The position numbers were made by a program, and so were the translations under genes. From NCBI GenBank assembly GCA_963850045.1, contig CAWKJL010000003.1, positions 965,288 to 1,029,287 on the forward strand: 64,000 bases of DNA, read 5' to 3'. The notes beneath the pieces are model-generated. The model saw only the letters and a list, made by a program, of their open reading frames with translations. It did no database searches and had not been told where the DNA came from. Shown here piece after piece: positions 1 through 48,650 of this stretch; within the stretch, counting starts at the first letter, position 1; every line of letters starts with the position of its first letter. The DNA is from an uncultured Chloroflexia bacterium (GTDB lineage: Bacteria; Chloroflexota; Limnocylindria; Limnocylindrales; CSP1-4).

Positions 1-385
1 CGGCCAGCGGTGCGGCCGCCGGGCCGGCGCCGGCGCCTGCGGGCGGGGCGGCCACGGCGGCCACGGGTCGCTCATCGGAGCCGGCCGGCCCGTCGGCTGG
101 CACGACCGACGGTTTCGCCGGCGCGGTCGTCGCCGGGGCGGAGGCCTCGTCGCTGGTGTCGATGATCGCGATCTCGGCCTCGTTGGGGACCGTCTCGCCC
201 TCCTGGACCAGGATCTCCTTGAGGATGCCCGCGAACGGCGACGGGACCTCGGCGTTCACCTTGTCGGTGATGACCTCGAGCAGCGGCTCGTACTTATCGA
301 CGTGGTCGCCGGGCTGCTTCAGCCATTTGCCGATCGTGCCCTCGGCGACGCTCTCGCCGAGTTGGGGCATCGTTACCTTGGCCAC
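1..385 (-). CDS. Dihydrolipoamide acyltransferase (E2) of a 2-oxoacid dehydrogenase complex. Only the N-terminal lipoyl domain is present; the rest lies beyond the window start.
   Basis: Absent from the ORF track because it runs off the window. My reverse translation from GTG 385 / ATG 370 gives (VAKVT)MPQLGESVAEGTIGKWLKQPGDHVDKYEPLLEVITDKVNAEVPSPFAGILKEILVQEGETVPNEAEIAIID followed by an Ala/Pro linker. This is a canonical lipoyl domain with the lipoyl-Lys in TDKV. Confidence 0.85.
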   Translation of the reverse strand, partial: MAKVTMPQLGESVAEGTIGKWLKQPGDHVDKYEPLLEVITDKVNAEVPSPFAGILKEILVQEGETVPNEAEIAIIDTSDEASAPATTAPAKPSVVPADGPAGSDERPVAAVAAPPAGAGAGPAAAPLA

Positions 386-487
386 GTTCGCTGGTCCTCC
401 GAGTCGCGTGATCCGATCGAGGCGTGACGCGCCGGTCGTTCCGCGTAGTGTCCCCCATCCGGGCAACGCGGGTCGAGTGGCCGCGAG

Positions 488-3400
488 GTGACGGCCGGGT
501 GGGACGATGGGCATGATGGCGCACATGGACGCGGCGGGAGTCCCCGGGTGACACGCTGGGCTCGGGCGATCGGGATCCGGCGCGGCGAGGGCCGGACCGT
601 GCTCCTCGTCGCGACACTGTTCGCAGCCCTGGAGCTCGGTCGCGGCTTCGGCGAGATCGGCGTCGACACGCTGGTCGTCAAGCGGTTCGGGGCAGGTTCC
701 CTGCCGTACCTGTTCATCGGGCTCGGGACGGTCAGCCTCATCGCGTCGCTGTTCTACGGCGGGGCGCTCGGCCGGCTGCCGCGGATCCGGCTCTTCAGCG
801 GCATCTTCGGCGCGGCGGCCGTCGCGCTGGTGGTCGAGCGAGTCCTGATCGAGACCGGGCATCCGGCGAGCATCGCCCTGGCCTATCTCACGGTCTACGC
901 CGTCGGCGCCATCGCCGTGACCATCGTCTGGACCATGGCCGCGTCGGTGTTCGACGCGCGGCAGGCCAAGCGCCTGTTCCCGCTCTGCACCGGCGCGGCC
1001 ATCGCGGGCAGCTTCGTGGGCACGCTCCTCTCCGGGCCCACGGCGCGGGCGCTGGGCACGCCGTCGCTCCTGGTCATCGAGGCCATCCTGCTGACCGTCG
1101 TCGGGCTGCTCGTCGTCGCGGTCGCGCGGACGACCACGGTGCGAGTGCCGCCGCGCCGGCGCGGCGGGTCGATCGTCGCGGACCTGCGGTTGGGCTTCGA
1201 CTCGGTCATGCGCTCGCCGCTGATGCGCCTGGTCGCGGTGGCCTATGTGCTGCTGGCCATCCTCGCCTCGTCCGTGACCTACCCGTTCATGCAGGCCGCG
1301 TCGGGCACGTTCACGACCGAGGCCGACCTCGCGACCGCCCTGGGCCTCCTGTCGGCGAGCGTGACCGCCACCTCGTTCGTGGTGTCGCTGCTGGTCGCCA
1401 ACCGCGTCTACGCCCGGTTCGGGGTCGCCGGTGCCGCGCTGGTCCTGCCGCTGGTCTACCTGGGCGGGTTCGGCATCTGGATCGTCGCCTTCTCGATGAC
1501 GACCGCCGCCCTCTTCCGGTTCACCCAGCAGACCACCCAGCGTGGGCTGTCGAACGCGGCATGGAGCGCGTTCTATAACGTCGTCCCCTCCGAGCGGCGC
1601 GCACAGGTCCTCGCCTTCAACGACGGCGTGCCCGGCCAGGTCGGGACGATCCTGTCCGGACTGCTGCTGATCGCGGCCGGCTCGGTGCTGGCGAGGGACC
1701 AGGTCTTCTGGCTGGGCGCGGTGACCGCCGTCGCCTGCACGATCGTCGTCGTCGGGATCCGGCGCCGCTATGCGGGGAGCCTGCTCCAGACGCTGCGGGC
1801 CGGGCTCGGCGAGCAGGTCCTCGAGGGTGGGCCGGGCCTCACCGCGCTGACCCGCGATCCCGCGGTCGCCGACGCCCTGGTCCAGGCCCTGGGCGCGCCC
1901 GAGCCCGGCGTGCGCCGGATGTCGGCCTCGCTGCTCGGCCAGACCTCGTCACCCGGGGCGGCGGCAAACCTCGCCGGTGCGCTCGCCGATGACGATCCGA
2001 GCGTCCGCGTCGCCGTGCTCGAGGCGATCGCGACGCTGGGCGGCGATGCCACGGTCGCCGACGCCGTCCGAATGCAGCTGGCGGATCCTGAGCCGATGGT
2101 CCGAGCCGCGGCCGTGCGGACGCTGACCGCGATCGCTGTCCTCGCCGACGACCCCGCCGGCGCCATCCCGGCGGTGACCGGGCTCGCCGACGACGACAGC
2201 CCGGCGGTGCGGGCAGCGGTCGCCAGCTCGATGCTGGCGGGCGGCCACGACGAGGCCTCCGTGCGGGTGATCGAGGAGCTGCTCGAGGACCCGGACGAAG
2301 CGTGCCGGATCGCCGGCCTCGACGCTGTCGGCCGCCTCGGCGACACGGTCCCGCTCGAGCGCGTACGCCCGCTCCTGGTCGACCGGGCGTTCACCGTACG
2401 CGTGGCCGCGCTCGAGGCGCTCACCGGAGCCCGCGATCCGCAAGCGATCGTCCCCGACCTCATCGTCGCGCTGAATGACCCGGTCTCCGACGTCCGGGTC
2501 GCAGCGGCTCGGATCCTCGCTGCCTTCGAGACCGCACCGCCCGGCGTCGTCGAGGTGCTGGCCACCGATTCCGCACGGGCCCAGGCCGCCGCTCTGACGG
2601 CCCTCGTCGGGCACGGCCCGGAGGTCCGCGCGGAGGTCATCGACTGGGCCGGCGGACGGCTGACCCGGGCGAACGATCTCCGGAGAGCGCGCCTCGCGCT
2701 TGGCGACGGCGCCGGCACGGGCTCCGACGCGGACGCCGCGGCCACGCCCGAGACCGCGTTCCTCGCGGCCATCCTCGAGCACCGCGAGCACGACCTCGCC
2801 AACCTCGCGCTCGGCGCCCTGGTCGTGCTCGGCGCGCCGGAGGCCGGTGGCGTGATCCGCCGCTGCCTGCGGTCGCGGGACACCGAGACCCGGGCACAGG
2901 CGATCGAAGCCCTCGAATCGATCGGCGACCCGCGGCTGAGCGGCGCGCTGGTCGGGCTGCTCGAAGAGGCCCCGTCCGCGCCGCAGGATCGCGCTGACGC
3001 GCTGCGCCGACTGGCCGATGATGACGACCCGTGGATCGCGCGCATGGCGCGCACGATCTCGACAGGAGACGCGGACATGCCGGAGACCAGTCGGACGCTC
3101 GGCGACCTCGAGACCATGCTCTTTCTGCGCCGCGTGCCGCTCTTCGAGGGGCTCGACCCCGAGGACCTCCAGCGGATCGCGTCGACCGCGGTCGAGCACG
3201 TCTACCCGGCGGGCGAGGCCCTGGTCCGCGAAGGGGACGTCGGCGACACGCTCATCGTCATCGTGGAGGGCTCGGTCCGCGTCGTGAAGGCCGAACCGGA
3301 CGGCTCCGAGCGCCTGATCCGCACGTACGCCGCGGGCGACCACATCGGCGAGCTCGCGGTGCTGCGCGAGGCCCCGCGTGCGGCGACGGTCCTCGCCGAG

Positions 3401-3520
3401 GCCGACGGCGTCCGCGGGCTCGTGATCGGCGGCGACGGCCTCAAGGCCATCCTGCGCGAGCGACCGGACGCGGCCATGGCCATGCTCGCGACGCTCTCGG
3501 AGCGGATCAGCAGGCAATAG
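488..3520 (+). CDS. Multidomain membrane protein: about 12 TM helices (MFS/TLC-like), HEAT (PBS-lyase type) repeats, and a C-terminal cyclic-nucleotide-binding (CAP_ED) domain.
   Basis: 1010-aa ORF. The N-terminal half is about 12 hydrophobic segments. The middle has at least 7 repeats of the D-x-x-x-VR-x-A-A-x-x-L type (DDDPSVRVAVLEAIATLG, DPEPMVRAAAVRTL, DDDSPAVRAAVASSM and others). The tail LFLRRVPLFEGLDPEDLQRIA...GDHIGELAVLREAPRAATVLA is a clear cNMP-binding fold. The start is uncertain (GTG 548 is an alternative). Confidence 0.8.
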   Translation: MTAGWDDGHDGAHGRGGSPRVTRWARAIGIRRGEGRTVLLVATLFAALELGRGFGEIGVDTLVVKRFGAGSLPYLFIGLGTVSLIASLFYGGALGRLPRIRLFSGIFGAAAVALVVERVLIETGHPASIALAYLTVYAVGAIAVTIVWTMAASVFDARQAKRLFPLCTGAAIAGSFVGTLLSGPTARALGTPSLLVIEAILLTVVGLLVVAVARTTTVRVPPRRRGGSIVADLRLGFDSVMRSPLMRLVAVAYVLLAILASSVTYPFMQAASGTFTTEADLATALGLLSASVTATSFVVSLLVANRVYARFGVAGAALVLPLVYLGGFGIWIVAFSMTTAALFRFTQQTTQRGLSNAAWSAFYNVVPSERRAQVLAFNDGVPGQVGTILSGLLLIAAGSVLARDQVFWLGAVTAVACTIVVVGIRRRYAGSLLQTLRAGLGEQVLEGGPGLTALTRDPAVADALVQALGAPEPGVRRMSASLLGQTSSPGAAANLAGALADDDPSVRVAVLEAIATLGGDATVADAVRMQLADPEPMVRAAAVRTLTAIAVLADDPAGAIPAVTGLADDDSPAVRAAVASSMLAGGHDEASVRVIEELLEDPDEACRIAGLDAVGRLGDTVPLERVRPLLVDRAFTVRVAALEALTGARDPQAIVPDLIVALNDPVSDVRVAAARILAAFETAPPGVVEVLATDSARAQAAALTALVGHGPEVRAEVIDWAGGRLTRANDLRRARLALGDGAGTGSDADAAATPETAFLAAILEHREHDLANLALGALVVLGAPEAGGVIRRCLRSRDTETRAQAIEALESIGDPRLSGALVGLLEEAPSAPQDRADALRRLADDDDPWIARMARTISTGDADMPETSRTLGDLETMLFLRRVPLFEGLDPEDLQRIASTAVEHVYPAGEALVREGDVGDTLIVIVEGSVRVVKAEPDGSERLIRTYAAGDHIGELAVLREAPRAATVLAEADGVRGLVIGGDGLKAILRERPDAAMAMLATLSERISRQ

Positions 3521-3530
3521 CATTCGGTCG

Positions 3531-6186
3531 ATGACCCAGACCGCCGACTCCGGCGACCCCGAGGCACGCGGCCCGCTGCCCGTCGGCACCGTCACGTTCC
3601 TGCGCACCGACGTCGAGGGCTCGATGGCGCTCGCCCGAGCACTGGGCCCGGCGTGGGACGCCGTCAACGCGATCCACCTCGCGATCATCCGTGCGGCCGT
3701 CGCGGCACACGATGGACGCGTGGTTCGAACCGAGGGCGACGCCGTCTTCGCGGTCTTCGCCGAGGCCGGTGCCTCGGTGGCCGCGGGCGTCGAGGCGCAG
3801 CGGGTGCTCATCGCGGAGCCGTGGCCGGGCACGTCGCCGCTCCGGGTGCGGATGGGCCTGCATACGGGCGAGGCGCACCTCGCTGGTGACGACTACGGCG
3901 GCTTCGACGTCAACCGGGCCGCCCGGGTCGCGGCAGTCGGTCACGGCGGCCAGATCGTCCTGTCGGGCCCGACCGCAGACCTGGTCGCGTACGCTCTTCC
4001 TGCCGGCACCTCGCTCAGGGAGCTCGGACGTTTCGTGCTCAAGGACGTGCCGCGCCCCGAGCGCCTCGTCCAGCTCGACGTCGCGGACCTGCCGAGCGAG
4101 TTCCCGCCCCTGCGCGCCGGCCAGGCGACGGTGGGCAACCTGGACGAGCGTCTCACGAGCTTCATCGGGCGCGACCGGGAGTTGGCGGAGCTCGCCGACG
4201 TGGTCGCCACGACGCGCCTCGTGACCCTGACCGGACCGGGCGGGATCGGAAAGTCGAGTCTCGCGGTGGAGGTCGCTCGACAGGTCCAGGGCGGACTACC
4301 CGGACGGCGTCTGGTTCGTCGCGCTCGCCGACCTCGATGACCCAGCCGACGTGATGGGCCACATCGCCCGCTCGCTCGGTTTGTTCGATGGCTCGACCAG
4401 GAGCGCGGCTGAGGCGCTGCCGGGCTTCCTGGCGGAGCGAGCGACGTTCCTGGTCCTCGACAACTTCGAACAGGTGCTCGAAGCGGCGGGCGCCCTCCCG
4501 GGACTCCTCCGGGGAGCGCCAGGCCTGCGCATCATCACGACCAGCCGGGCGCCCCTCCATGTCGCTGGTGAGCAGGAGTACCCGGTCGCGCCGCTCGGTC
4601 GCACGGACCCGGAGGCGGCGGTCCGCCTCTTCGGCGAGCGCGCGCGGGCGGTCCGCCCCGGCTGGGACGCGGGCGATGACACGCCGGTCGTCAGCGAGAT
4701 CTGCGCCCTGCTCGACGGACTGCCACTGGGAGTCGAGCTCGCGGCGGCGCGCGTCAGCCTGCTGCCCCTCCCGTCGATCCGGGACCGGTTGGCCGCGCAT
4801 CTTCCGCTCCCGGGCAGTGGGCCGCGAGACGCACCGGCTCGCCAGCGGACGCTCGACGGAGCCGTCGCCTGGAGCCACGACCTGCTCGAGCCCCGGCTCC
4901 AGGGGATCCTCGGACGGTTGTCGGTCTTCGAGGGCGGGTTCGCCGACGAGCAGGCCGCGATGGTCGCGGCCGGCGACGACCACGCCGACCTCCTCGACGA
5001 TCTGGCCGCCCTCGTCGACCAGAGCCTCGTCGAGCGCGATCCCACCAGCCCGGGGGTCAGGTTCCGCCTGCTGGAGACCGTCCGATCCTTCGCAGCAGGA
5101 CGGCTTGCCGCGACTGGGACCGCCGACGCCACCCGCCGGCGCCACGCTGACGCATTCCTGGCCCTGGCCGGCGAGGCCAAACGTCACGAGGCCACGATGG
5201 CCCGAGCGATGTGGCTCGAACGCCTGGCGTCCGACGAGGCCAATCTCCGCGCGGCCGTCCGGTGGTGCGTGGACGCCGGCGAGGCCGAACTGGCGCTTCG
5301 GTTCGTCGGCGACCTGTGGCGGTTCTGGCAGGCGGACGGCCGACTGGCAGAGGGGCGCGTCCTCGCGACCCGCGTCCTCGAGATGCCCGGCTCCGAGGCC
5401 CCGAAGCTCGCCCGGATGTGGGCGCTCGGCGCCGCCGGCAGCCTCGCCTACTGGCAGGCCGACCTGGCCGCGACCCGCACGCTGTACCAAGAGCAGGTCG
5501 AACTCGCCCGGACGCTCGAGGACGATCGCGGGCTCGCGGACGCGCTGTTCAACCTGGCCCATGTGGACCTCCTCGACCAGAGCGACCCGAGCGCGGGACG
5601 CCGCAGCATCGAGGAGGCGCGGCAGCGGTACCGCGCTCTCGGCGACGAGAGAGGAGCAGCTCGGACGGACTGGGCGCTCGGGAATGCCGACATGGAAGCC
5701 GGCGACATCGAGTCGGCGCTTGCGATCTTCCGGGCCAGTCGTGACCGGTTCGTCGCGCTGGGCGATCCCCAATACACGCACATGGCGGCAGCGAGCCTCG
5801 CCTGGGCCGAGTTCCGCGCCGGCGACCAGACGGCAGCCGCACGTTGGGCACTCACCGGGTTGCATGAGGCATACGCGACCCACGACCTCGCGACGGCCAC
5901 GATCTCGCTGCACATCGGCGTGCTGGTCGCCGTGATGTTCGGGCAACCGGAGGTGGCGGCTCGCTTGACCGGCGCCTTCGATGCGAGCTGCGAGCGCTAT
6001 GGCGTCCGACCACCAGCGGCACTCGAACGCTTCCTGAAGGTGACCGACCCGTTCGGGATGGCGCGTCAGTCCCTGTCACCCGCCGCCTGGGACCTGGCCT
6101 ATGGCGCGGGTCGGCGGATGACGCTCGGTGAGGCGGTCGACCTCGCGACGTCGATGGCGCCATCCGACGTCCGATCGACGTCTTGA
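3531..6186 (+). pseudogene. Class III adenylate/guanylate cyclase domain + STAND/NB-ARC-like P-loop NTPase + TPR region. One gene split by a net +1 frame disruption near 4289-4296.
   Basis: ORF 3531-4340 has cyclase motifs (VTFLRTDVEGSMAL, RTEGDAVFAVF, VRMGLHTGE, DYGGFDVNRAARV) and then Walker A LTGPGGIGKSSL. The next frame continues seamlessly as YPDGVWFVALADLDDPADVMGHIARSLGL, then Walker B FLVLDNFEQV and IITTSRAPL (ORF 4351-6186), followed by TPR-like helices. Confidence 0.8.
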
Positions 6187-6222
6187 TCCGGGCCGCCCGC
6201 GGCGAGCTTCCGGGTCGCCGGC

Positions 6223-7206
6223 TCAGTAGGCGGCGAGCTTGCGGATCCCCGCCGCGATCTTCTCGGGGTCGACCATGAACCAGTCCTCCAGGACGTGGTT
6301 GTACGGGACGCCCGGGACCTCGGGGCCGGCGATCCGCGTCACCGGGCCGTCGAGGTAGTCGAAGGCCTCCTCGGCGACGATCGCGGCCACCTCGGCGCCG
6401 TAGCCGCCGAACTTGTTGTCCTCGTAGACGATCAGGCACTTGCCGGTCTTGCGGACGCTGTCGAGCACGGTCTCGCGGTCGAGCGGGCGGAGCGTCCGCA
6501 GGTCGATGACCTCGACGCTGATCCCGTCCTCCGCCACGCGGTCCGCCGCCTCGAGGGCGTAGTGGGCCATCAGCCCGTACGCCACCACCGTCACCTGCGA
6601 GCCCGGGTGGGTGACCGCGGCCCTGCCCAACGGGATGACGTAGTCCGTGTCCGGCACCTCGCCACGGACCGAGCGGTACATCTTCTTGTGCTCGAAGAAG
6701 AGCACCGGGTCGTCGTCGCGGATGGCCGAGCGCAGCAGGCCGCGCGCGTCGTACGGGGTGGATGGCACCACCACCTTGAGGCCCGGAACGTGGGTGAAGA
6801 ACGCCTCGACGCTCTGCGAGTGGTAGAGCGCGCCATGGACGCCACCGCCGTACGGGGCGCGGATCGTCATCGGGACGCTGTAGCCGTTGTTCGAGCGATA
6901 GCGCATCCGGGCCGCCTCGGACACGATCTGGTTGAAGGCCGGATGGATGAAGTCCGCGAACTGGATCTCGGCGACCGGCCGAAGCCCGTTCACCGCCGCC
7001 CCGATCGAGGCGCCCACGATCATCGACTCGGTCAGCGGCGTGTCGATGACCCGCTCCTCGCCGAACTCGGCCCACAGGCCGTCGGTCGCCAGGAACACGC
7101 CGCCCTTCTTGCCGACGTCCTCGCCGAGCACGATGACCGACTCGTCGCGACGCATCTCCTCGGCGAGCGTCTCGCGGATGGCGTCGATGAACGTGCGGGT
7201 CGGCAT
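6223..7206 (-). CDS. 2-oxoacid (branched-chain/pyruvate/acetoin type) dehydrogenase E1 component, beta subunit
   Basis: 327 aa. The stretch TFIDAIRETLAEEMRRDESVIVLGEDVGKKGGVF...VIDTPLTESMIVGASIGAAVNGLRPVAEIQFADF is the typical transketolase-like E1 beta sequence. The start codon shares base 7206 with the E1 alpha stop (7206-7208). Confidence 0.95.
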   Translation of the reverse strand: MPTRTFIDAIRETLAEEMRRDESVIVLGEDVGKKGGVFLATDGLWAEFGEERVIDTPLTESMIVGASIGAAVNGLRPVAEIQFADFIHPAFNQIVSEAARMRYRSNNGYSVPMTIRAPYGGGVHGALYHSQSVEAFFTHVPGLKVVVPSTPYDARGLLRSAIRDDDPVLFFEHKKMYRSVRGEVPDTDYVIPLGRAAVTHPGSQVTVVAYGLMAHYALEAADRVAEDGISVEVIDLRTLRPLDRETVLDSVRKTGKCLIVYEDNKFGGYGAEVAAIVAEEAFDYLDGPVTRIAGPEVPGVPYNHVLEDWFMVDPEKIAAGIRKLAAY

Positions 7207-8237
7207 CAGGGCAGCACCGGCAGGTCGGGGTCGATCGCGTAGACGTAGCGCATCGCCGTCGCGGGATCCGGGTCGGGCTCCGCCTCGGCGTGGTCCGTGG
7301 CGTCGTCGACGGCGGCCTTGATCTCGGCCCCGAGTCGCGCCTCGATCTCGTCGGTCAGCACCCCCCCGCCGCGGAGCTGCTCGCGGAAGCGCGGCAGCGG
7401 ATCGCGCTCGCGCTCGGCCGTCAGCTCCTCGGCGGAGCGGTACTTGGTCTGCTGGTCGTCGGACGAATGCGCGGTCAGGCGCGTCACCTTCGCCTCGATC
7501 AGGGTCGGCCCGTCGCCGGCGCGCGCCCGGGCGACCGCATCGCGGGCCGCCGCGTAGCAGCCCAGGACGTCGACGCCGTCCACGACGACACCGGGGATGC
7601 CATAGCCGGCCGCCCGGTCCGCGACGTCCTCGACGGAGACCTCCATCGCCGCCGGGACGCTGATGGCGTACCCGTTGTTCTCGACCACGAACACGAACGG
7701 CAGCTTGTGGATCGCCGCGAAGTTGAGGCCCTCGTGGACGTCGCCCTGGTTCGACGAGCCCTCCCCCATCGAGGTCATCGCGACCTGGCCGGTCTTGCGG
7801 ATCTTGGCCGCGAGCGCGATCCCGACCGCATGCAGGAGCTGGGTCGCGACCGGCGAGCTGACGGAGAGGAGGTTGTGCTCACGCGAGCCGTAGTGACCGG
7901 GCATCTGGCGCCCGCCCGACGACGGGTCGCTCGCGGTCGCGTACTGCGCGGTCATGATGTCCCGCGCGCTCATCCCGAACGTGAGGCAGGTCGCGATCGA
8001 GCGGTAGAACGGTGCGATCCAGTCGTGCCCCTTCTCGAACGCCATGGCGATGCCGACCTGCGCACCCTCGTGGCCCTGGCCGCTGATCACGAAGGGGATC
8101 CGACCGGCCCGGTTGAGGATCCACATCCGCTCGTCGACGGCGCGCGCCAGCGCGACCAGCCGGTACATCTCGACCAGGTCGGCGTCGGTCAGGCCGACCG
8201 AGTCGGCGAGCGCGGATGCTCCCCGGGTCACCGCCAT
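7206..8237 (-). CDS. 2-oxoacid dehydrogenase E1 component, alpha subunit (TPP-dependent)
   Basis: 343 aa. It carries the TPP-binding region GEGSSNQGDVHEGLNFAAIHKLPFVFVVENNGYAIS and lies immediately upstream of E1 beta on the same strand. Confidence 0.95.
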   Translation of the reverse strand: MAVTRGASALADSVGLTDADLVEMYRLVALARAVDERMWILNRAGRIPFVISGQGHEGAQVGIAMAFEKGHDWIAPFYRSIATCLTFGMSARDIMTAQYATASDPSSGGRQMPGHYGSREHNLLSVSSPVATQLLHAVGIALAAKIRKTGQVAMTSMGEGSSNQGDVHEGLNFAAIHKLPFVFVVENNGYAISVPAAMEVSVEDVADRAAGYGIPGVVVDGVDVLGCYAAARDAVARARAGDGPTLIEAKVTRLTAHSSDDQQTKYRSAEELTAERERDPLPRFREQLRGGGVLTDEIEARLGAEIKAAVDDATDHAEAEPDPDPATAMRYVYAIDPDLPVLP

Positions 8238-8301
8238 CGGACCGATGGGCCTCCTCGTGTCGTCGACCGTCGTGGCGCCGGAGCTCGCGACGCCGTTCGC
8301 A

Positions 8302-9744
8302 TCAGAAGTTGATCGACTGCCCGTCGACGGCCATCGCGGCCTCGCCGACGACCTCGGAAAGGGTCGGGTGTGGATGTGTCGCCCGGCCGATCTCCCACGG
8401 GGCGGCCTCGAGCGTGAACCCGAGACTGGCCTCGGCGATCAGGTCGGTCGCGTGCGGGCCGATGAGGTGGACGCCGATCGTGTCGCCGGTCGTCGTGTCG
8501 GCGATGACCTTGGCGAAGCCCTCGTACTCGCCCCCGATGATCGCCTTGGCGATCGCCTGGAACGGGACCTTGCCGACCTTGTACGGGGTGCCCGCGGCCT
8601 TGACCTGCTCCTCGGTCAGCCCGATCGAGGCGATCTCCGGGCGGCAGTAGGTCGCCCGCGGCTGGGCCGCGTAGTCCATCTCGTGGACGTCCTTCTCGCC
8701 GGCGATCGTGTGCGCCGCGGTGATCCCCTCGTGGGCCGCGGTGTGGGCGAGCCACAGCCCGCCGATCGCGTCGCCGATGGCGTAGACGTGGGGCTCCTTC
8801 GTCCGCATGTGGCCGTTCGTCTTGATCACGCCCCGGTCCGTCTCGACCTTGGTGGTCTCGAGGCCGATGTCCTCGATGTTGGCGGCGCGTCCCGTGGCGA
8901 CGAGCATCAGCTCCGCCCGGAGCTCGGCCGGCTCCTTGCCCTCCGGCCCGACCATCACGCAGATCCCGTCCTGGTCGGACGTCACCGACGCCGGGTCGAA
9001 GCGGGCGTTGGTCATGACCGTGATGCCGCGCTTCGTGAAGCTGCGCTCGAGGACCTTGCTGACCTCGCCGTCCTCGAGTGGCACGATCGCGGGCAGGTAC
9101 TCGAGCACCGTGACCTTGACGCCGACATCGTGGAACATCGAGGCGAACTCGACCCCGACCGCACCGGCGCCGACGATGACGATGTCCTTCGGCAGCGAAT
9201 CCATCCGGAGGACGTCGTCGCTGGTGACGATGCGCTTGCCGTCCGGGGTGAGCCCCGGGAGCGACTTCACCCGCGACCCGGTCGCGATGATCACGTCCGT
9301 GGCGTTCAGGACGCGATCGCCGCCCTTGCCGGGCGTCCCGTCCTCGCCGGGCTGGCTGACCCGGATCTTGCCCGGCCCGTCCAGGCGGCCGCGGCCTTCG
9401 ATCCAGGTCACCTTGTTCTTGTCGATGAGGGTCTTGAGCCCGGTCCACATGCGCTTGACCACGGCATCGCGGCGGGCCGCCATCGCGGCGTAGTCGACGA
9501 CGGCCTCACCCGGCAGGTTCAGGCCGTAGTCCTTGGCGTGCCGGATGCGATCGGCGAACGCGGCCAATTCGAGGAGGGCCTTGGTCGGGATGCACCCGCG
9601 ATGGAGGCATGTCCCCCCGATCTTGTCCTGGTCGACGAGCGCGACCTTCAGGCCGAGCTGGGCGGCACGGAACGCCGCCGTGTACCCGCCGGTGCCCGCG
9701 CCGAGCACGACGAGGTCGAAGTCATTGGAAGAGCCGACGGCCAT
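8302..9744 (-). CDS. lpdA: Dihydrolipoyl dehydrogenase (E3)
   Basis: 480 aa. FAD-binding motif DLVVLGAGTGGY, redox-active disulfide GGTCLHRGCIPTK, and a C-terminal HAHPTLSE-type interface motif (THPHPTLSE). Confidence 0.95.
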   Translation of the reverse strand: MAVGSSNDFDLVVLGAGTGGYTAAFRAAQLGLKVALVDQDKIGGTCLHRGCIPTKALLELAAFADRIRHAKDYGLNLPGEAVVDYAAMAARRDAVVKRMWTGLKTLIDKNKVTWIEGRGRLDGPGKIRVSQPGEDGTPGKGGDRVLNATDVIIATGSRVKSLPGLTPDGKRIVTSDDVLRMDSLPKDIVIVGAGAVGVEFASMFHDVGVKVTVLEYLPAIVPLEDGEVSKVLERSFTKRGITVMTNARFDPASVTSDQDGICVMVGPEGKEPAELRAELMLVATGRAANIEDIGLETTKVETDRGVIKTNGHMRTKEPHVYAIGDAIGGLWLAHTAAHEGITAAHTIAGEKDVHEMDYAAQPRATYCRPEIASIGLTEEQVKAAGTPYKVGKVPFQAIAKAIIGGEYEGFAKVIADTTTGDTIGVHLIGPHATDLIAEASLGFTLEAAPWEIGRATHPHPTLSEVVGEAAMAVDGQSINF

Positions 9745-9907
9745 GGGTCAGGGTGCCTCGGATAGCCGGCGGTCCAGCGGCCCCGATCGGTCGTCGACGG
9801 GCCGGACGGTCGGAAGGATCATGGAGGTCGATGGTACGCGTGCCGTCGAGCGTCCCGCAACCGTCGGGCTGCCCGCTCCGGCGGGTCGAGCCGGGGCGAC
9901 CCGGTGC

Positions 9908-9913
9908 TAGACT
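9908..9913 (+). promoter_or_regulatory. Candidate -10 box TAGACT upstream of plsY
   Basis: A TANNNT hexamer sits 39 nt upstream of ATG 9953, with AGGAG before the start codon. I found no clear -35 element. Pattern match only. Confidence 0.25.
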
Positions 9914-9952
9914 CCGCCCTTCGGGCGTCCGCCCCCACGAACAGGAGCCTCG

Positions 9953-10597
9953 ATGGATCCGGCGATCCTCCGCCTCGTCGTCCTGATGCTCACCGCATAC
10001 CTCATCGGCTCGATCCCGATGGGCGTCCTGGCGGCCCGGTTCTCCGGCGGACCGGACCCGCGGACCATCGGGTCCGGGCGGACCGGCGGCACCAACACGC
10101 TCCGCGCCCTCGGCCGCAAGTGGGCGGTGGTCGTGGTGATCGGCGACCTCCTCAAAGGCGTGATCCCGGTCCTGCTGGCCAGGGTCGTCACCGGCGGCGA
10201 CCCGCTGGCCGAGGTCCTGTGCGGCGGCGCGGCCGTGGCCGGTGCGATCTGGTCGGTCTTCGTCGGGTTCCGCAGCGGCCGCGGGGTCGGGACCGGCGTC
10301 GGCACGATGCTCGTCATCCAGCCCGTGGCGGTCCTGCTCGCCACCCCGGTGTTCGTGGTCGTGATCCTGCTGACCCACTACGTGTCGCTCGGGTCGCTGC
10401 TGGGGTCCGCCGCGATGTTCCCCGCGATGCTGCTGGTCTTCATGATCGTCCCCGAGACGCCGCTCCCCTACGTGCTCTACTCGGCGGTCGGCGCGGCGCT
10501 GATCTGGCTCGCCCACGCCGACAACATCGACCGCCTGCTGCACGGCACCGAGCGCAAGTTCGACCTGGGCCTGCTCGCGGGGAAGCGCCCGAGCTGA
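9953..10597 (+). CDS. plsY: Glycerol-3-phosphate acyltransferase PlsY
   Basis: 214 aa. The sequence AYLIGSIPMGVLAARFSGGPDPRTIGSGRTGGTNTLRALG contains the PlsY signature (SGN/TxGATN-like) within a multi-TM protein. Confidence 0.9.
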   Translation: MDPAILRLVVLMLTAYLIGSIPMGVLAARFSGGPDPRTIGSGRTGGTNTLRALGRKWAVVVVIGDLLKGVIPVLLARVVTGGDPLAEVLCGGAAVAGAIWSVFVGFRSGRGVGTGVGTMLVIQPVAVLLATPVFVVVILLTHYVSLGSLLGSAAMFPAMLLVFMIVPETPLPYVLYSAVGAALIWLAHADNIDRLLHGTERKFDLGLLAGKRPS

Positions 10598-10611
10598 CTC
10601 TTTGAATCGAA

Positions 10612-10640
10612 CGATCCGGGTCGGCTGACGACCCGGATCG
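10612..10640. terminator. Perfect hairpin between the convergent plsY and zinc-ribbon genes (probable bidirectional terminator)
   Basis: The arms cgatccgggtcg and cgacccggatcg form a 12-bp perfect stem around the loop gctga. A second 8-bp GC hairpin (gcgggccg / cggcccgc) follows near 10657-10680. There is no long U tract, which is usual for high-GC genomes. Confidence 0.45.
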
Positions 10641-10693
10641 GGATCACGCTGGTTCGGCGGGCCGTTGGTCGGCCCGCACCGAGAGGACCTGGA

Positions 10694-11071
10694 CTAGCCC
10701 CGCTGGCTGCGGAAGCAGTCGCTGCAGTAGACGGGCTTGCCGCTCGTCGGACGGAAGGGGACCTGAGCCTCCTTGCCGCAGGACGAGCAGGTGGCGCTGA
10801 ACATCTCGCGGGGGCCGCGATCGCGGGAGCCGTAGCTGCCGCCACCACCGCCGTACCCGCCTGACGCGCCGGCCGAGTAGCCGCCGCCGGAGCTGTAGCC
10901 GCCATAGGACCCGCCGCCCTCCGCGTTGCGGGCGGCCTTGCGGCTGGCGCGACACGACGGGCAACGACGGGGCTCGGTAAAGCCACGCTGCGCGTAGAAG
11001 TCCTGCTCGGAAGCGGTGAAGACGAACTCCTGTCCACAGTCCGCGCAGGTCAGGTTCTTGTCGTTGTACAC
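10694..11071 (-). CDS. Zinc-ribbon / CxxC-x17-CxxC protein with a Gly/Tyr/Ser-rich central linker
   Basis: 125 aa with a GTG start. The N-terminal part has CADCGQEF...RRCPSCR. The central part is GGGSYGGYSSGGGYSAGASGGYGGGGGSYG. The C-terminal part has CSSCGKEAQVPFRPTSGKPVYCSDC, with CxxC pairs 17 residues apart. Confidence 0.8.
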   Translation of the reverse strand: MYNDKNLTCADCGQEFVFTASEQDFYAQRGFTEPRRCPSCRASRKAARNAEGGGSYGGYSSGGGYSAGASGGYGGGGGSYGSRDRGPREMFSATCSSCGKEAQVPFRPTSGKPVYCSDCFRSQRG

Positions 11072-11079
11072 GAAACAGA

Positions 11080-11140
11080 GACTCCTCTCGGTAGCCGGCG
11101 CGAGCCCGTCGGGTTTCTCGCGTCAGCCGTGAGAGGAGTC
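11080..11140 (-). promoter_or_regulatory. Structured 5' leader whose outer stem pairs with the Shine-Dalgarno sequence of the zinc-ribbon gene
   Basis: On the mRNA strand, GACUCCUCUC (11140-11131) pairs perfectly with GAGAGGAGUC (11089-80). The latter contains the GAGGAG SD sequence about 10 nt before GTG 11071. Nested inner stems are cgcgag/ctcgcg and ccc/ggg. Confidence 0.4.
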
Positions 11141-11259
11141 CGAGTTCGTGTCGAGCTACGGTCTGGCCGTGGACGCGCTCCACGGCATTTACGAGCGGGA
11201 TGGTACAAACCGGACCGGCGGTTGCCTAGCCCCGACTTTCGGCCGTTTCGTGCGGGACG

Positions 11260-12916
11260 TCAGGCCGGATCCTCGGGCGGGGCGACCGAGAACTGGCGCC
11301 GCGCGGACTCGAGATACGTCTCGACCTCCCGCTGGCGACGCGCCTCATCCCAGCCGAGGACGTCGCCGAGCAGATCGGCGACCCGCGGCGCCACGGCGGC
11401 TCCCCGATCCGGGAGCTCCTGCGAGAGCCGGGTCCGCCGGGTCAGGACGTCGTCGACCGAGAGCGCGATCTCGCGGCGCGCTGCCCACGGCACCTCGGCC
11501 TCGAGGAACGGCCGGCCCTCGACGAGCGGACGGACGAGGTCGAGCGAGCGCCCGAGCTCGAGCACGTCCGGCGCCTCGGAGCCGTGGCGTGCCACGAGCC
11601 GTTCCGCAGCCCCGGGCGAGACCGCGGCAAGGTCAGCGCCGGCGCCGAGATCCGCCGCCAGGCGGTCGAGCTGGTCACGGTCGGCGGCGCCGACCAGCCG
11701 ATGGTCCGCGGTCCGGCTTGGCCTGGCGCGGACGGCGTGCGCGCCGAGGACCGCATCGATGACGTCGCTGGCCATCACGCGGTAGGTCGTGTACTTGCCG
11801 CCGCCGATCCGGACGACGCCGTTCGCCTCCACCGTCACGCGGTGCTCGCGCGACGCTTTGACCGTCGAGCCGTCGGATGGCGCGATCAGCGGCCGAAGGC
11901 CCGCGTACGTGCCGACGACGTCCTCCCGTCGCAGGTCGACGTCCATCGTCGCGTTGACGGTGTCGAGGAGATGGGTCACCTCCCAAGCGGCGGCGGCGGG
12001 TTCCTCGTTCGGACCCTCGTACGGCGCATCGGTCGTGCCGATGAGCCAGTGCTCCGGCCAGGGGACGAGGAAGACGATCTTGCCCGGCACGCGCACGGTC
12101 AGCCCGACCGTGTTCGGGATGCGGGCGCGCGGCACGACGAGATGCGCGCCGCGGCTCGGCAGGATGCGCATCGAGCCGCCGCCGAACGGGTGGTCGGCGC
12201 TGGCCTCCCAGACGCCGGTGGCGTCCACGACGGCCGAGGTGCGGATCTCGAGGTCGGTGCCGGTCAGCAGGTCGCGGGCGAGGACCGCCTCGATGGAGCC
12301 GGCGGACACGCCGGCGCGGAGGCCGGTGGCGCGGACCCTGGTGACCGCCAAGGCCGCCGGCGGCGACCGCGGTGCGAGCCACCGCGAGCGTGTAGCGGGC
12401 GTCGTCCTCGACGCCGTCGTGGTACAGGAGCCCGCCGCGCAGGCCGTCCGTCCGGAGGGTCGGGGCGAGCTCGAGGGTGGCGCCGCGCGACAGGCGCCGG
12501 TGCCAGCCGCCGTCGTGCCGCGCGCCGAGGATGTCGTACAGGGTCAGGCCGGCGTCATAGAACGCCTTCGTGGCGAACGGGATCCCGTAGATCGGGAACA
12601 GCAGCGGTTCGAGGCGAACGAGGTGCGGCGCGAGGTCGAGCAGCCTCGACCGTTCGGCGAGCGCCTCACGGACCAGCCCGAAGCGGAACTGCTCGAGATA
12701 GCGGAGGCCGCCGTGGATCAGGCGCGACGAGCGCGACGAGGTTCCCGAGGCGATGTCGTCCTGCTCGATGAGCGCGGCCCGCATGCCGCGCGACACGGCG
12801 TCGAGGAGCGCGCCGTTGCCGACGATGCCGCCACCGACGATGACGACGTCCCAGGTGCCATCGGCGAGGGTCTCGAGATCGGAGCGGCGACCGGCGACCG
12901 GGTCGGCCGCCATCAC
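11260..12916 (-). pseudogene. glpD: FAD-dependent glycerol-3-phosphate dehydrogenase, net +1 frame disruption near 12352-12360
   Basis: The N-terminal ORF (WDVVIVGGGIVGNGALLDAVSRG...SSRSSRLIHGGLRYLE...YTLAVARTAVAAGG) and the C-terminal ORF (AVTRVRATGL...SRGAHLVVP...GGKYTTYR...) join directly in adjacent frames. Confidence 0.85.
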
Positions 12917-23222: not shown

Positions 23223-23287
23223 CGATGGTCTCCAGGAGACAGGGACGCCGCCTCCGGGTGCCGGGGACGGCGTCATCGATGACGTTC

Positions 23288-23378
23288 GGCCTGCTTCCTT
23301 CGCCGGTACGAGCCGGATCAGGTTCGGCGGGTCTGCGGCAGGTGCCGCACTCTCAGCGCATCAGCGCTCCCCGGAGGC
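23288..23378 (-). promoter_or_regulatory. TPP (THI-box) riboswitch
   Basis: The minus-strand RNA reads GGGGAGCGCUGAUGCGCUGAGAGUGCGGCACCUGCCGCAGACCCGCCGAACCUGAUCCGGCUCGUACCGGCGAAGGAAGC. The CUGAGA, ACCC, ACCUGAUCCGG and CCGGCGAAGGAA elements are the conserved THI-element core. A downstream GUCUCC-UG-GAGAC hairpin can sequester the SD sequence. Confidence 0.85.
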
Positions 23379-23672
23379 ATATGAAGTTGGTGGCACCGTA
23401 CCACGGCGGCCCGCATGGCGGCCGATCCCACCATTCGGGCGGCAGCCGGCGACACATGCCTCTGGCTGGCAGCCAATGAGATCAGCACCAATGGCTCCGA
23501 CGCCTGCCTATCGCTGGCGTTGAGCCAGCGACTCCGAGGAACGAGTCGATCGCGGGTCGCCATCGCTGGCGGACGGCCAGCACGCAAGCACCGGCGACGC
23601 TTCCACTGTCGGATTCGATGGCCCTGCGCCAGCGCGACACCCACCTCGGGCGAGGCGCGGCGATCCGCGGTT

Positions 23673-48575: not shown

Positions 48576-48650
48576 TGGCGAGTGGCCAAGCGGTAAGGCG
48601 CCTGACTCTGGATCAGGAGATCGAAGGTTCGAATCCTTCCTCGCCAGCCA
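48576..48650 (+). tRNA. tRNA-Gln (anticodon CUG), CCA encoded
   Basis: I folded it by hand. The acceptor stem is TGGCGAG/CTCGCCA (the U1-A72 pair is typical of tRNA-Gln). The D arm is GCC-AAGCGGTAA-GGC. The anticodon stem is CCTGA/TCAGG with loop CTCTGGA. The T arm is GAAGG-TTCGAAT-CCTTC. The discriminator is G, followed by CCA. A TATCAT -10-like box lies at 48556-48561. Confidence 0.9.

Follow-up and report, generated by a model that had tools for sequence, protein, structure and literature searches.

Why should two genes which look like the two halves of a cyclic nucleotide signalling system sit in the midst of a 2-oxoacid dehydrogenase operon, and do they belong together? The question is raised by a 64,000-nt stretch of contig CAWKJL010000003.1 from an uncultured Chloroflexia bacterium (assembly GCA_963850045.1), which we refer to as the window. 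Near its start, gene 1, encoding a membrane protein with HEAT repeats and a C-terminal cyclic nucleotide-binding domain (cNBD), is followed by gene 2, encoding a class III nucleotide cyclase domain fused to a STAND NTPase and a tetratricopeptide repeat (TPR) region (Table 1). An earlier reading of this DNA (the original prediction) had proposed that the cyclase feeds the neighbouring protein, which binds cyclic nucleoside monophosphates (cNMPs), that the pair is an accessory module inserted into the operon, and that it follows the logic of the Pycsar and Avs defence systems. The domain calls made for both genes were borne out by Pfam, by AlphaFold2 (AF2) models and by Foldseek, and the sequence agrees that the genes are co-directional, 10 nt apart and on the opposite strand to the dehydrogenase operon. 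Comparison with other genomes makes a strong case that the genes are coupled, and we consider it probable (roughly 60%, from sequence comparisons and structural models) that they act as a single signalling unit, a STAND-gated cyclic nucleotide relay controlling a transporter which resembles the nucleotide translocators (NTT), whatever role the relay may serve.

The functional link is suggested by the arrangement of the two genes in other genomes. A tblastn survey yielded 69 fetched loci, 59 of them non-redundant and with a complete gene 1, and in about 54 of these 59 the two genes are adjacent, in either order and in three different settings. Gene 2 lies directly downstream of gene 1 in 46 loci (39 in the same dehydrogenase slot and seven elsewhere), with a spacing between the called genes of 5–10 nt in the relatives, and the 10 nt found in the window indicates an operon junction. 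It lies directly upstream in a further 4–6 of the 59 loci, which represent a separate paralogous clade of gene 1, and a 3-kb gap separates the two genes in two loci (L066 being one of them). Four loci were negative for gene 2 by tblastn (L059, L025, L054 and L029, the last being too short to judge), and in one of these, from the Anaerolineales (L059; gene 1 34% identical), a protein with Zn-ribbon, Guanylate_cyc, AAA_16 and TPR domains starts one base past the gene 1 stop codon. We also note that the gap in one of these two loci contains a second gene 2-like copy (L066:12923–16300), which is divided over three open reading frames (ORFs) holding the cyclase motif, the Walker A region and the rest, and that this broken copy appears to have arisen by tandem duplication or to be left over from an allele replacement.

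The pair is also found as a single protein, and this is the strongest evidence for the link. Exhaustive searching with the membrane domain led to five fusions of 2025–2158 aa in which the transmembrane (TM), HEAT, cNBD, cyclase, AAA_16 and TPR parts follow each other in one chain, in the order gene 1 then gene 2 (the membrane-domain search itself gave two of about 2,130–2,154 aa). The five diverge widely from each other: measured against P0323, the fusion used as query, the other four reach only 46–48% identity, and they were drawn from three data sources. In two cases, JGI contigs showed the fusion to be one ORF of 6.4 kb in an unremarkable neighbourhood, and the junction is seamless, with the last cNBD helix followed by some 25 residues and then the cyclase motif. 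Because the genes co-occur in two orders and several contexts and are also fused ("Rosetta-stone" evidence), we regard them as functionally linked, and the adjacency, the reversed order in the paralogous clade, the Anaerolineales pair and the five fusions together support the proposal that the cyclase feeds its cNMP-binding neighbour. Substitution patterns within the same allele lineage (L012/L036 and L043/L061) gave dN/dS values of 0.10–0.23 for gene 2 and 0.13–0.24 for gene 1, and by this measure both proteins are under purifying selection.

The gene 1 protein has 612 homologues with E-values below 1e-10 and exceeds their length by about 20 aa, so that translation may actually begin at the GTG at position 548. 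In its AF2 model (pLDDT 77) the 12 long helices of the membrane domain (residues 35–444) are followed by some 25 solenoid helices (451–860) and the beta-barrel of the cNBD (901–981). Pfam matches of the membrane domain are weak (TLC, PF03219, E = 0.005 with 16 bits against a cut-off of 21; MFS_1, E = 0.03), and two homologues, P0061 and P0081 (25–26 bits, 5e-6), as well as the fusion P0378 (23.9 bits), do score above the Pfam cut-off for TLC. The top structural match found by Foldseek was the Arabidopsis ATP/ADP translocator AtNTT1 (9j3l/9j3m, target-normalised TM-score 0.64–0.68), with other MFS carriers next, and the modelled fold thus appears closest to that of the plastid and bacterial nucleotide translocators (NTT/TLC). 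A phmmer search of this domain against PDB returned chance matches only and none to NTT chains, so that the NTT substrate-binding residues could not be mapped onto it. The membrane-domain family is large, with 4872 clusters at 50% identity (E ≤ 1e-3).

The original prediction had counted at least seven HEAT repeats in gene 1, and while HEAT repeats are indeed present, the modelled solenoid is larger, with about 25 helices, and resembles AlphaRep and HEAT structures (1e-61 to 1e-18). It is the most variable part of the protein, with a column entropy of 1.91 bits, above those of the TM domain (1.31) and the cNBD (1.00). The cNBD is 98% identical to that of L001, one of the three nearest genomes (dN/dS 0.04), and its phosphate-binding cassette reads GELAVLREAPRAATV; residues G954, E955, L956, A957, R964 and A966 are invariant in an alignment of 14 sequences (A1). 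A PRAATV phosphate-binding cassette is of the PKA type, and the best solved relatives are the PKA and PKG regulatory domains and CRP, and we predict that the gene 1 cNBD is a PKA-type domain which binds cNMPs.

Gene 2 shows Pfam matches to Guanylate_cyc (residues 19–153), AAA_16/nSTAND1 (from residue 209) and TPR_12, together with partial NCBIfam matches to AfsR, FxSxx_TPR and LipJ, and its AF2 model has a pLDDT of 79 and a pTM of 0.70. The Guanylate_cyc (PF00211) match, to the class III cyclases, scored 26.3 bits (6.4e-6), above the cut-off of 21.9, and the closest solved cyclase is the Ma1120 adenylyl cyclase (4.6e-27, 31–33% identity, target-normalised TM-score 0.78 by Foldseek). When residue conservation was followed across 43 intact homologues, the metal-binding D27 and D70 as well as D121 and R132 were found in all 43 and N128 in 37, and all of these residues are present in the window protein. 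The original prediction had drawn attention to an Arg at the substrate-selecting Lys position of the K-T-x-G-D motif. The substitution (R66) is real, but is no anomaly, as this position is occupied by Arg in 38 of the 43 homologues, by Lys in one and by Gly in four, making Arg the family norm; one of the fusions has Arg and another Gln.

The central module of gene 2 carries a Walker A motif, GPGGIGKS (residues 235–242), and both the Walker A K241 and the Walker B D310 are retained by all 43 homologues. It matches AfsR (4e-17) and plant NLRs by sequence, while Foldseek aligned it with PH0952 (6mfv, an archaeal STAND-TPR protein) and the NB-ARC modules of Apaf-1, CED-4 and NRC1, and homologues of gene 2 carry NB-ARC and HTH_77 domains. 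By the sequence and structural features compared here, the predicted NTPase is an NB-ARC/AP-ATPase-type STAND. The TPR region which follows is the most divergent part of the protein, with 51% amino acid identity to L001 compared to 96–98% for the flanking genes, and has a column entropy of 1.87 bits against 1.08 for the cyclase; variability within the array is higher on alternate helices and recurs every 40 aa. The LuxR helix-turn-helix (HTH) which the original prediction had reported to be missing is indeed absent, since neither part of gene 2 gave a GerE match (E ≤ 0.01) by a method which does detect GerE in a neighbouring gene at the L025 locus.

We propose that gene 2 would be inactive as an ADP-bound protein of the NB-ARC STAND type, and that binding of a ligand, probably a peptide or a protein, to the TPR array would lead to nucleotide exchange and oligomerisation. 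The active sites of class III cyclases form only across a dimer interface. Oligomerisation would then join the N-terminal cyclase domains and start production of a 3',5'-cNMP, most probably cAMP; we favour cAMP because gene 2 is related to Ma1120, keeps the conserved Asp (D121) and would signal to a PKA-type receptor. The PRAATV cassette and the Ma1120 kinship likewise point to a purine cNMP rather than to cCMP or cUMP. The cNMP would bind to the gene 1 cNBD and, through the HEAT solenoid, would switch the NTT-like 12-helix transporter, perhaps one for nucleotides.

A number of points weigh against this relay or against parts of it. With Arg instead of Lys at the base-selecting position, the product could differ from cAMP. 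As the sequence match to NTT/TLC is weak (E = 0.005, and none by phmmer against PDB), nucleotide transport by gene 1 is a guess made from the modelled fold. At the paralogous L025 locus, the position directly upstream of gene 1 (6876–9929) is taken by an AAA_16, TPR and GerE (LuxR) protein with no cyclase, so that the partner there would be a STAND-TPR protein with a predicted transcriptional output, and the distant gene 1 homologue of L054 has no partner. A diffusible messenger also seems redundant in the fused proteins, in which the cNBD might instead give feedback to the cyclase. Finally, gene 2 is interrupted in the window by a frameshift, and were this genuine, the organism would carry a dead unit.

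The history of the locus bears on what the relay may be for. The closest relatives are Chloroflexota metagenome-assembled genomes (MAGs) labelled as Candidatus Limnocylindria or Limnocylindrales or as "uncultured Chloroflexia", many of them from one long-read soil project. The three nearest (L001–L003; gene 1 87–92% identical) have the same gene order as the window, with E2 on one side and E1beta, E1alpha and E3 on the other, all transcribed in the opposite direction to genes 1 and 2. This arrangement is retained in L004–L006, where gene 1 identity falls to 69%, 66% and 57%, and the junction between E2 and E1beta remains occupied down to about 45–50% gene 1 identity across Ca. Limnocylindria, within a wider E3–E1alpha–E1beta/E2–lipA locus which is found class-wide. 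The pair is in the dehydrogenase slot in 41 of the 59 non-redundant loci. As the arrangement is the same in the nearest genomes, persists to 57% gene 1 identity and accounts for 41 of the 59 loci, the cassette is an old, vertically kept resident of the E2/E1beta junction in Ca. Limnocylindria and no recent insertion.

The suggestion that the pair is an inserted accessory module is thus not upheld, and the base composition of the cassette (72% G+C, similar to the surroundings) gives it no support. Profiles of both genes found no relatives in the IMG/VR viral contigs, and PLSDB plasmids held no mobile copy of the pair, with gene 1 matching by its cNBD only and gene 2 matching remote Rv0386-like and Sinorhizobium cyclases (37–42% identical). 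We also observed that six of the loci (L013, L043, L061, L056, L047 and L023) have 1–3 kb, with 1–3 extra minus-strand genes, between gene 2 and E1beta. Judged by motif and not by a Pfam scan, these encode an ECF-type sigma factor, a protein of about 366 aa, a response regulator-like protein and a conserved protein of about 135 aa, and look like ordinary regulators.

Although the slot is fixed, its contents are not. When the DNA of the window was compared to that of L001–L003, E2, gene 1, E1beta, E1alpha and E3 were found to be about 90–95% identical and gene 2 only 55–75%, with the drop in identity beginning at about 3531–3550 and recovering exactly at the E1beta stop codon. The corresponding amino acid identities are 98–99% for E1beta, 89–92% for gene 1 and 58–61% for gene 2. 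Synonymous divergence (dS, by the Nei–Gojobori method) is 0.22–0.36 for the flanking dehydrogenase genes, 0.23–0.39 for the gene 1 domains against L001 and L002 (and higher against L003), and 0.66–1.02 for gene 2, for which the proportion of synonymous differences (pS, 0.44–0.56) is in our judgement near the ceiling for codons so biased in G+C at the third position (GC3). The dN/dS of gene 2 in the same comparison runs from 0.25 in the cyclase to 0.4–0.55 in the TPR region. Because synonymous change in gene 2 is saturated when compared with the flanks, the alleles of gene 2 are, by these distances, older than the genomes which carry them, and their divergence is explained neither by decay nor by local positive selection. 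In a set of 5.8 billion proteins the closest gene 2 reaches only 73% identity; it occupies this same slot in a distant genome, where gene 1 is about 50% and E1alpha and E3 are 82–84% identical to those of the window.

The two genes do not change hands together. Neighbour-joining trees of genes 1 and 2 are incongruent, and their pairwise distances are weakly correlated (Pearson 0.32, Spearman 0.11). In L043 and L061, gene 1 has been swapped (59–79% DNA and 64% amino acid identity, dS about 1.0) and gene 2 kept (86–94%) between flanks which are 90–97% identical, and in L012 and L014 both genes have been replaced. L021 and L050 share a cyclase which is 92% identical with a flank-like dS, followed by an NTPase of 71% and a TPR region of 46% identity with a dS of about 0.9, and this indicates a breakpoint within gene 2. 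Genes 1 and 2, and at times only the NTPase–TPR part of gene 2, have repeatedly been replaced by deeply divergent alleles through flank-anchored recombination, and have been swapped independently of each other. Such reassortment fits a link by a small diffusible molecule and not a co-evolving protein interface, and a variable biotic ligand is the trigger suggested by the turnover of alleles. The position is conserved and the two genes vary almost independently, a combination which the original prediction had itself named as refuting its proposal, and by this measure the reading as a mobile defence island fails.

Other origins for this pattern were considered. Chimeric assembly was rejected, as identity returns to 90–95% on both sides at the ends of the genes and the pattern is also seen when a short-read MAG is compared to a long-read one (L061 and L043), and gene conversion from the paralogous pair, in which gene 2 precedes gene 1, is unlikely since the slot alleles cluster apart in the neighbour-joining trees. 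There is no template/variable repeat pair of the type expected of a diversity-generating retroelement (DGR) in positions 1–12000, unlike in the DGR-diversified STAND sensors (PMC10907252). Two further observations concern the assemblies themselves. Contig segments L028:11073–14197 and L044:1–3125, from the same MAG (Co_metawrap_1992), overlap over the gene 1/gene 2 junction at 81.8% DNA identity, which means that the population holds two alleles or that the bin is mixed, and short-read assemblies appear to break within the cassette.

What might such a relay do for the cell? One purpose is offered here tentatively: the pair may belong to an undescribed cyclic nucleotide immune or biotic-conflict family, in which the cNMP made by a STAND-TPR-cyclase would open an NTT-like nucleotide transporter as effector, and which would be fixed class-wide and diversified by independent, flank-anchored swaps of ancient sensor and effector alleles between species and not by the gain and loss of islands. 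A defence-type role in this wide sense is possible, though we would not call it likely, and it is kept alive by the presence of ancient exchanged alleles at a fixed locus (typical of variable biotic partners), by the STAND-TPR layout and by the logic of a cyclase joined to a cNBD effector. The hypervariability of the sensor gene through allele replacement, which is typical of biotic or conflict selection, counts in its favour.

A narrower version, in which the pair is a dedicated anti-phage abortive-infection system, seems doubtful. The TPR region would see a phage protein, the cNMP would act as an alarm, the NTT-like effector would drain nucleotides or depolarise the cell, and the allele turnover would record an arms race. 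This would suit the joining of an effector-STAND-TPR layout to a cyclase with a cNBD-transmembrane partner, the concentration of variability on alternate TPR helices, the exchange among species of ancient alleles of a hypervariable sensor gene, and the match between the gene 1 cNBD and that of PycTIR (9e-12), and in a 2026 preprint (bioRxiv 10.64898/2026.08.12.744502) the STAND-fused cyclases fall within a predicted "immune clade 1". However, when both proteins were scanned with PADLOC, only matches to shared domains were obtained and no defence family could be assigned; gene 2 matched mad8 (2e-5, in the NTPase region) and PycC (0.004) only, with no Avs model among its matches, so that the membership of Pycsar or Avs hinted at earlier is not borne out. 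The unit is fixed class-wide in a housekeeping operon and is no patchy island gene, its occasional extra neighbours look like ordinary regulators, the fusion genes are in ordinary neighbourhoods, and neither the IMG/VR viral contigs (for the pair) nor the PLSDB plasmids (for gene 1) hold a copy. Swaps are as frequent in the effector gene as in the sensor gene, which is atypical of known systems, and the main text of a 2026 Nature survey of STAND proteins makes no mention of cyclases.

The view that the cassette is a decaying remnant in this organism, with a real frameshift, a gene 2 pseudogene and a low identity caused by lost constraint, is unlikely. The reading frame of gene 2 is broken 11 codons past the Walker A motif, as had been reported earlier, and gene 2 is only 58–61% identical to that of the nearest genomes. 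The disruption is real in the sequence, but is most likely an assembly error, since the extra base sits in a run of G and its removal gives a full-length protein of 884 aa in which the catalytic and Walker residues are all intact and the junction fits the homologue consensus (...ARxxxxxxPDGxWFV...) in length with no gap. No other degenerate feature was seen in gene 2. Similar frame changes split gene 2 in 12 of 57 loci (L004, L015, L017, L019, L024, L026, L046, L051, L052, L058, L063 and L065), all of them in long-read (Microflora Danica type) soil MAGs, whereas the short-read MAG loci which span gene 2 are all intact, and gene 1 is split in the same manner in about 7 of 62. We consider the frameshift to be probably an assembly indel, some three times likelier than a real and very recent mutation, and these counts bear on the trust to be placed in frameshifts of long-read soil MAG data. 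Decay was also rejected as the cause of the divergence of gene 2, because synonymous change is saturated compared to the flanks and predates the split of the species, the flanking dS of about 0.25 caps what neutral decay could have achieved since that split, and dN/dS within the same allele lineage is low.

Finally, the pair might have a housekeeping task in regulating energy or carbon metabolism, in which the cyclase would report a metabolic state linked to the 2-oxoacid dehydrogenase and cAMP would tune nucleotide or solute exchange. This would agree with the class-wide conservation of position, with the purifying selection on both genes, with the physiological role ascribed to the Rv0386-type mycobacterial and Sinorhizobium cyclases to which gene 2 is related, and with the cAMP control of NTT activity proposed for NTT-HEAT-cNBD proteins (PMC5381601), but it is quite improbable, as many ancient alleles which are mutually 50–60% identical and exchanged between species are unexpected between flanks of 90–95% identity, and the pair is also adjacent or fused at loci without dehydrogenase genes. 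As the pair is intact at such loci, its link with the operon is positional and not obligatory.

Comparison with known systems suggests that the relay proposed here is made of familiar parts. The original prediction knew of no MFS-HEAT-cNMP protein, but this architecture had already been described by Major et al. in 2017 (Genome Biol Evol, PMC5381601) as uncharacterised NTT-HEAT-cNBD fusions, found in many phyla and with a related NTT-HEAT form also in chlamydiae. Like these, gene 1 has a predicted NTT/TLC-like domain followed by HEAT repeats (HEAT_2 and HEAT, PF13646/PF02985) and a C-terminal cNMP-binding domain (PF00027), and the authors too raised, as a speculation, the control of transport by cAMP which an adenylate cyclase would make. 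In contrast, the paper reports no linked cyclase gene, and the membrane domain of gene 1 represents a divergent branch which falls under the Pfam cut-off for TLC and matches AtNTT1 in fold only. In the literature searched we found no report of the conserved pairing, of the fusions, or of independent allele swapping in a 2-oxoacid dehydrogenase operon, and only the 2017 architecture paper and the remark on STAND-fused cyclases in the 2026 preprint bear on the pairing.

The pair resembles Pycsar and Pucsar in being a two-gene operon in which a class III-fold cyclase would make a 3',5'-cNMP read by an effector-fused cNBD. Unlike in Pycsar, the cyclase carries a STAND-TPR sensor and is not PycC-like (E = 0.0039 and 14.6 bits over 55 residues only), and in place of a 3TM or TIR protein the putative effector has 12 helices of an NTT-like transporter joined to a HEAT solenoid. 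The unit is also a fixed resident of a core locus. With the Avs and NLR-like STAND sensors, PH0952, MalT and AfsR, gene 2 shares the order of N-terminal output, NB-ARC-type NTPase and C-terminal TPR sensor, and a sensor end which is the most variable part. However, its output is a nucleotide cyclase and not a nuclease, a protease or a DNA-binding domain, and the match to Avs3 (8dgc) is weak (query-normalised TM-score 0.18).

Gene 2 shares its order of cyclase, AAA_16 ATPase and TPR with the mycobacterial proteins of the Rv0386/Rv1358/Rv2488c type, to which it is homologous over the N-terminal two-thirds, and an alignment covering 97% of the first 481 aa of gene 2 shows 41.6% identity to a "LuxR family" protein of Mycobacterium sp. 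JS623. The canonical base-selecting Lys is missing from both, being Arg in gene 2, Gln in one fusion and Gln/Asn in Rv0386. Unlike the Rv0386 type, gene 2 has no C-terminal LuxR/GerE HTH, leaving the cyclase as the sole output, and is paired with a cNMP-binding transporter.

Gene 1 can in turn be compared to cNMP-gated transporters and channels such as the sperm Na+/H+ exchanger SLC9C1, SthK and MloK1, and the M. tuberculosis MFS-cNBD proteins Rv3239c and Rv3728, in which a membrane transport domain is likewise followed by a C-terminal cNBD. SLC9C1 was the top whole-chain Foldseek match by architecture, but with a TM-score of only about 0.13, making this an analogy and not a homology, and gene 1 differs from the group in its NTT-like MFS transport fold and in the long HEAT solenoid ahead of the cNBD. 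In its population behaviour the locus recalls polymorphic loci such as those for capsule or O-antigen, hsdS, and the pherotype loci comQXP or agr, with which it shares a sharply bounded divergence between conserved flanks, alleles older than the species and incongruent phylogenies. However, it encodes a cytoplasmic sensor-cyclase and a transporter instead of surface or signal-peptide genes, and genes 1 and 2 reassort independently with no co-variation. We regard the unit as known parts in a new combination, with a well-supported functional link and a striking turnover of alleles.

The coordinates of the cassette and of the dehydrogenase genes around it are collected in Table 1. The E2 gene, which forms the conserved left flank of the cassette, runs past the start of the window, with a start codon at about 371 (ATG) or at 385 (GTG), and in the relatives E2 is made up of Biotin_lipoyl, E3_binding and 2-oxoacid_dh domains. 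The intergenic DNA between E2 and gene 1 is 90–98% identical to L001, and no match to a sigma-70-like promoter was found in it; a scan for promoters and terminators was uninformative.

Table 1. Positions of the cassette, its predicted domains and the adjoining dehydrogenase genes in the window.
Feature	Position	Strand	Basis or remarks
E2 (dihydrolipoamide acyltransferase), 5' part with lipoyl domain	1..385	-	Translation MPQLGESVAEGTIGKWLK...; tblastn against relatives
Divergent intergenic region, E2/gene 1	386..487 (to 547 if gene 1 starts at GTG 548)	.	Direct sequence reading
Gene 1	488..3520	+	ORF of 1010 aa; Pfam, AF2 model, Foldseek
Gene 1 membrane domain, aa 35-444	590..1819	+	12 long helices (DSSP of AF2 model), MFS fold
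Gene 1 HEAT solenoid, aa 451-860	1838..3067	+	HEAT_2 9e-32 (5 stretches), HEAT 1e-19
Gene 1 cNBD, aa 871-1010	3098..3517	+	cNMP_binding, residues 904-991, 8e-19
Spacer, gene 1 stop to gene 2 ATG	3521..3530	+	10 nt, CATTCGGTCG; direct reading
Gene 2	3531..6186	+	ATG at 3531; 884 aa after removal of one base
Gene 2 cyclase domain, aa 16-190	3576..4100	+	Guanylate_cyc; D27, D70, R66, D121, N128, R132
Gene 2 STAND NTPase module, aa 206-530	4146..5121	+	P-loop nucleotide-binding domain, then helical and winged-helix domains
Frameshift site in gene 2	4287..4290	+	One extra G in run 4287-4289; CAGGGCGG where CAG GCG G expected
Gene 2 TPR region, aa 531-884	5122..6183	+	TPR_12; matches to LGN/Pins-type TPR arrays
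E1beta of the 2-oxoacid dehydrogenase complex	6223..7206	-	Transket_pyr and Transketolase_C (Pfam); conserved right flank
E1alpha	7206-8237	-	E1_dh 2e-88
E3 (dihydrolipoamide dehydrogenase)	8302-9744	-	Synteny and tblastn

A few other observations were made in the window. The stop codons of gene 2 and E1beta are separated by 36 nt (6187–6222), and in most relatives these convergent genes overlap by 7 nt. An inverted repeat of 33 nt with 79% complementarity (3550–3582 and 6189–6221) encloses gene 2 almost exactly, with its right arm in this window-specific spacer, but it has no counterpart in the relatives (blastn-short), was rejected as a meaningful element, and is probably a chance feature of GC-rich DNA. 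A GTG-initiated ORF of 111 aa on the plus strand (156–491), antisense over E2, has no Pfam match and is probably spurious. An Rfam scan of the whole window found a thiamine pyrophosphate (TPP) riboswitch (RF00059, 67.6 bits, E = 4e-11) at 23277–23383 on the minus strand and no match in or near the cassette, and the sole tRNA of the window is a tRNA-Gln (anticodon CTG) at 48576–48650 on the plus strand. A GC3 frame plot for counting further frameshifts in the window was too noisy to tell these from operon junctions, and was not used.

The pairing has consequences for several lines of work. It gives the widespread NTT-HEAT-cNBD proteins a concrete and testable input, in the form of a STAND-cyclase partner which is obligatory and sometimes fused, and it links NLR-like STAND sensing with 3',5'-cNMP signalling to a membrane effector, which have so far been separate themes. 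The independent replacement of two adjacent genes within a core operon by alleles which predate the species is an unusual population-genetic pattern, seen here in an abundant uncultured soil lineage, and is open to direct study in existing long-read soil metagenomes. If the pair does represent an immune or biotic-conflict family, this would be the first function for NTT-HEAT(-cNBD) proteins, which are also found in cyanobacteria, chlamydiae and oomycetes.

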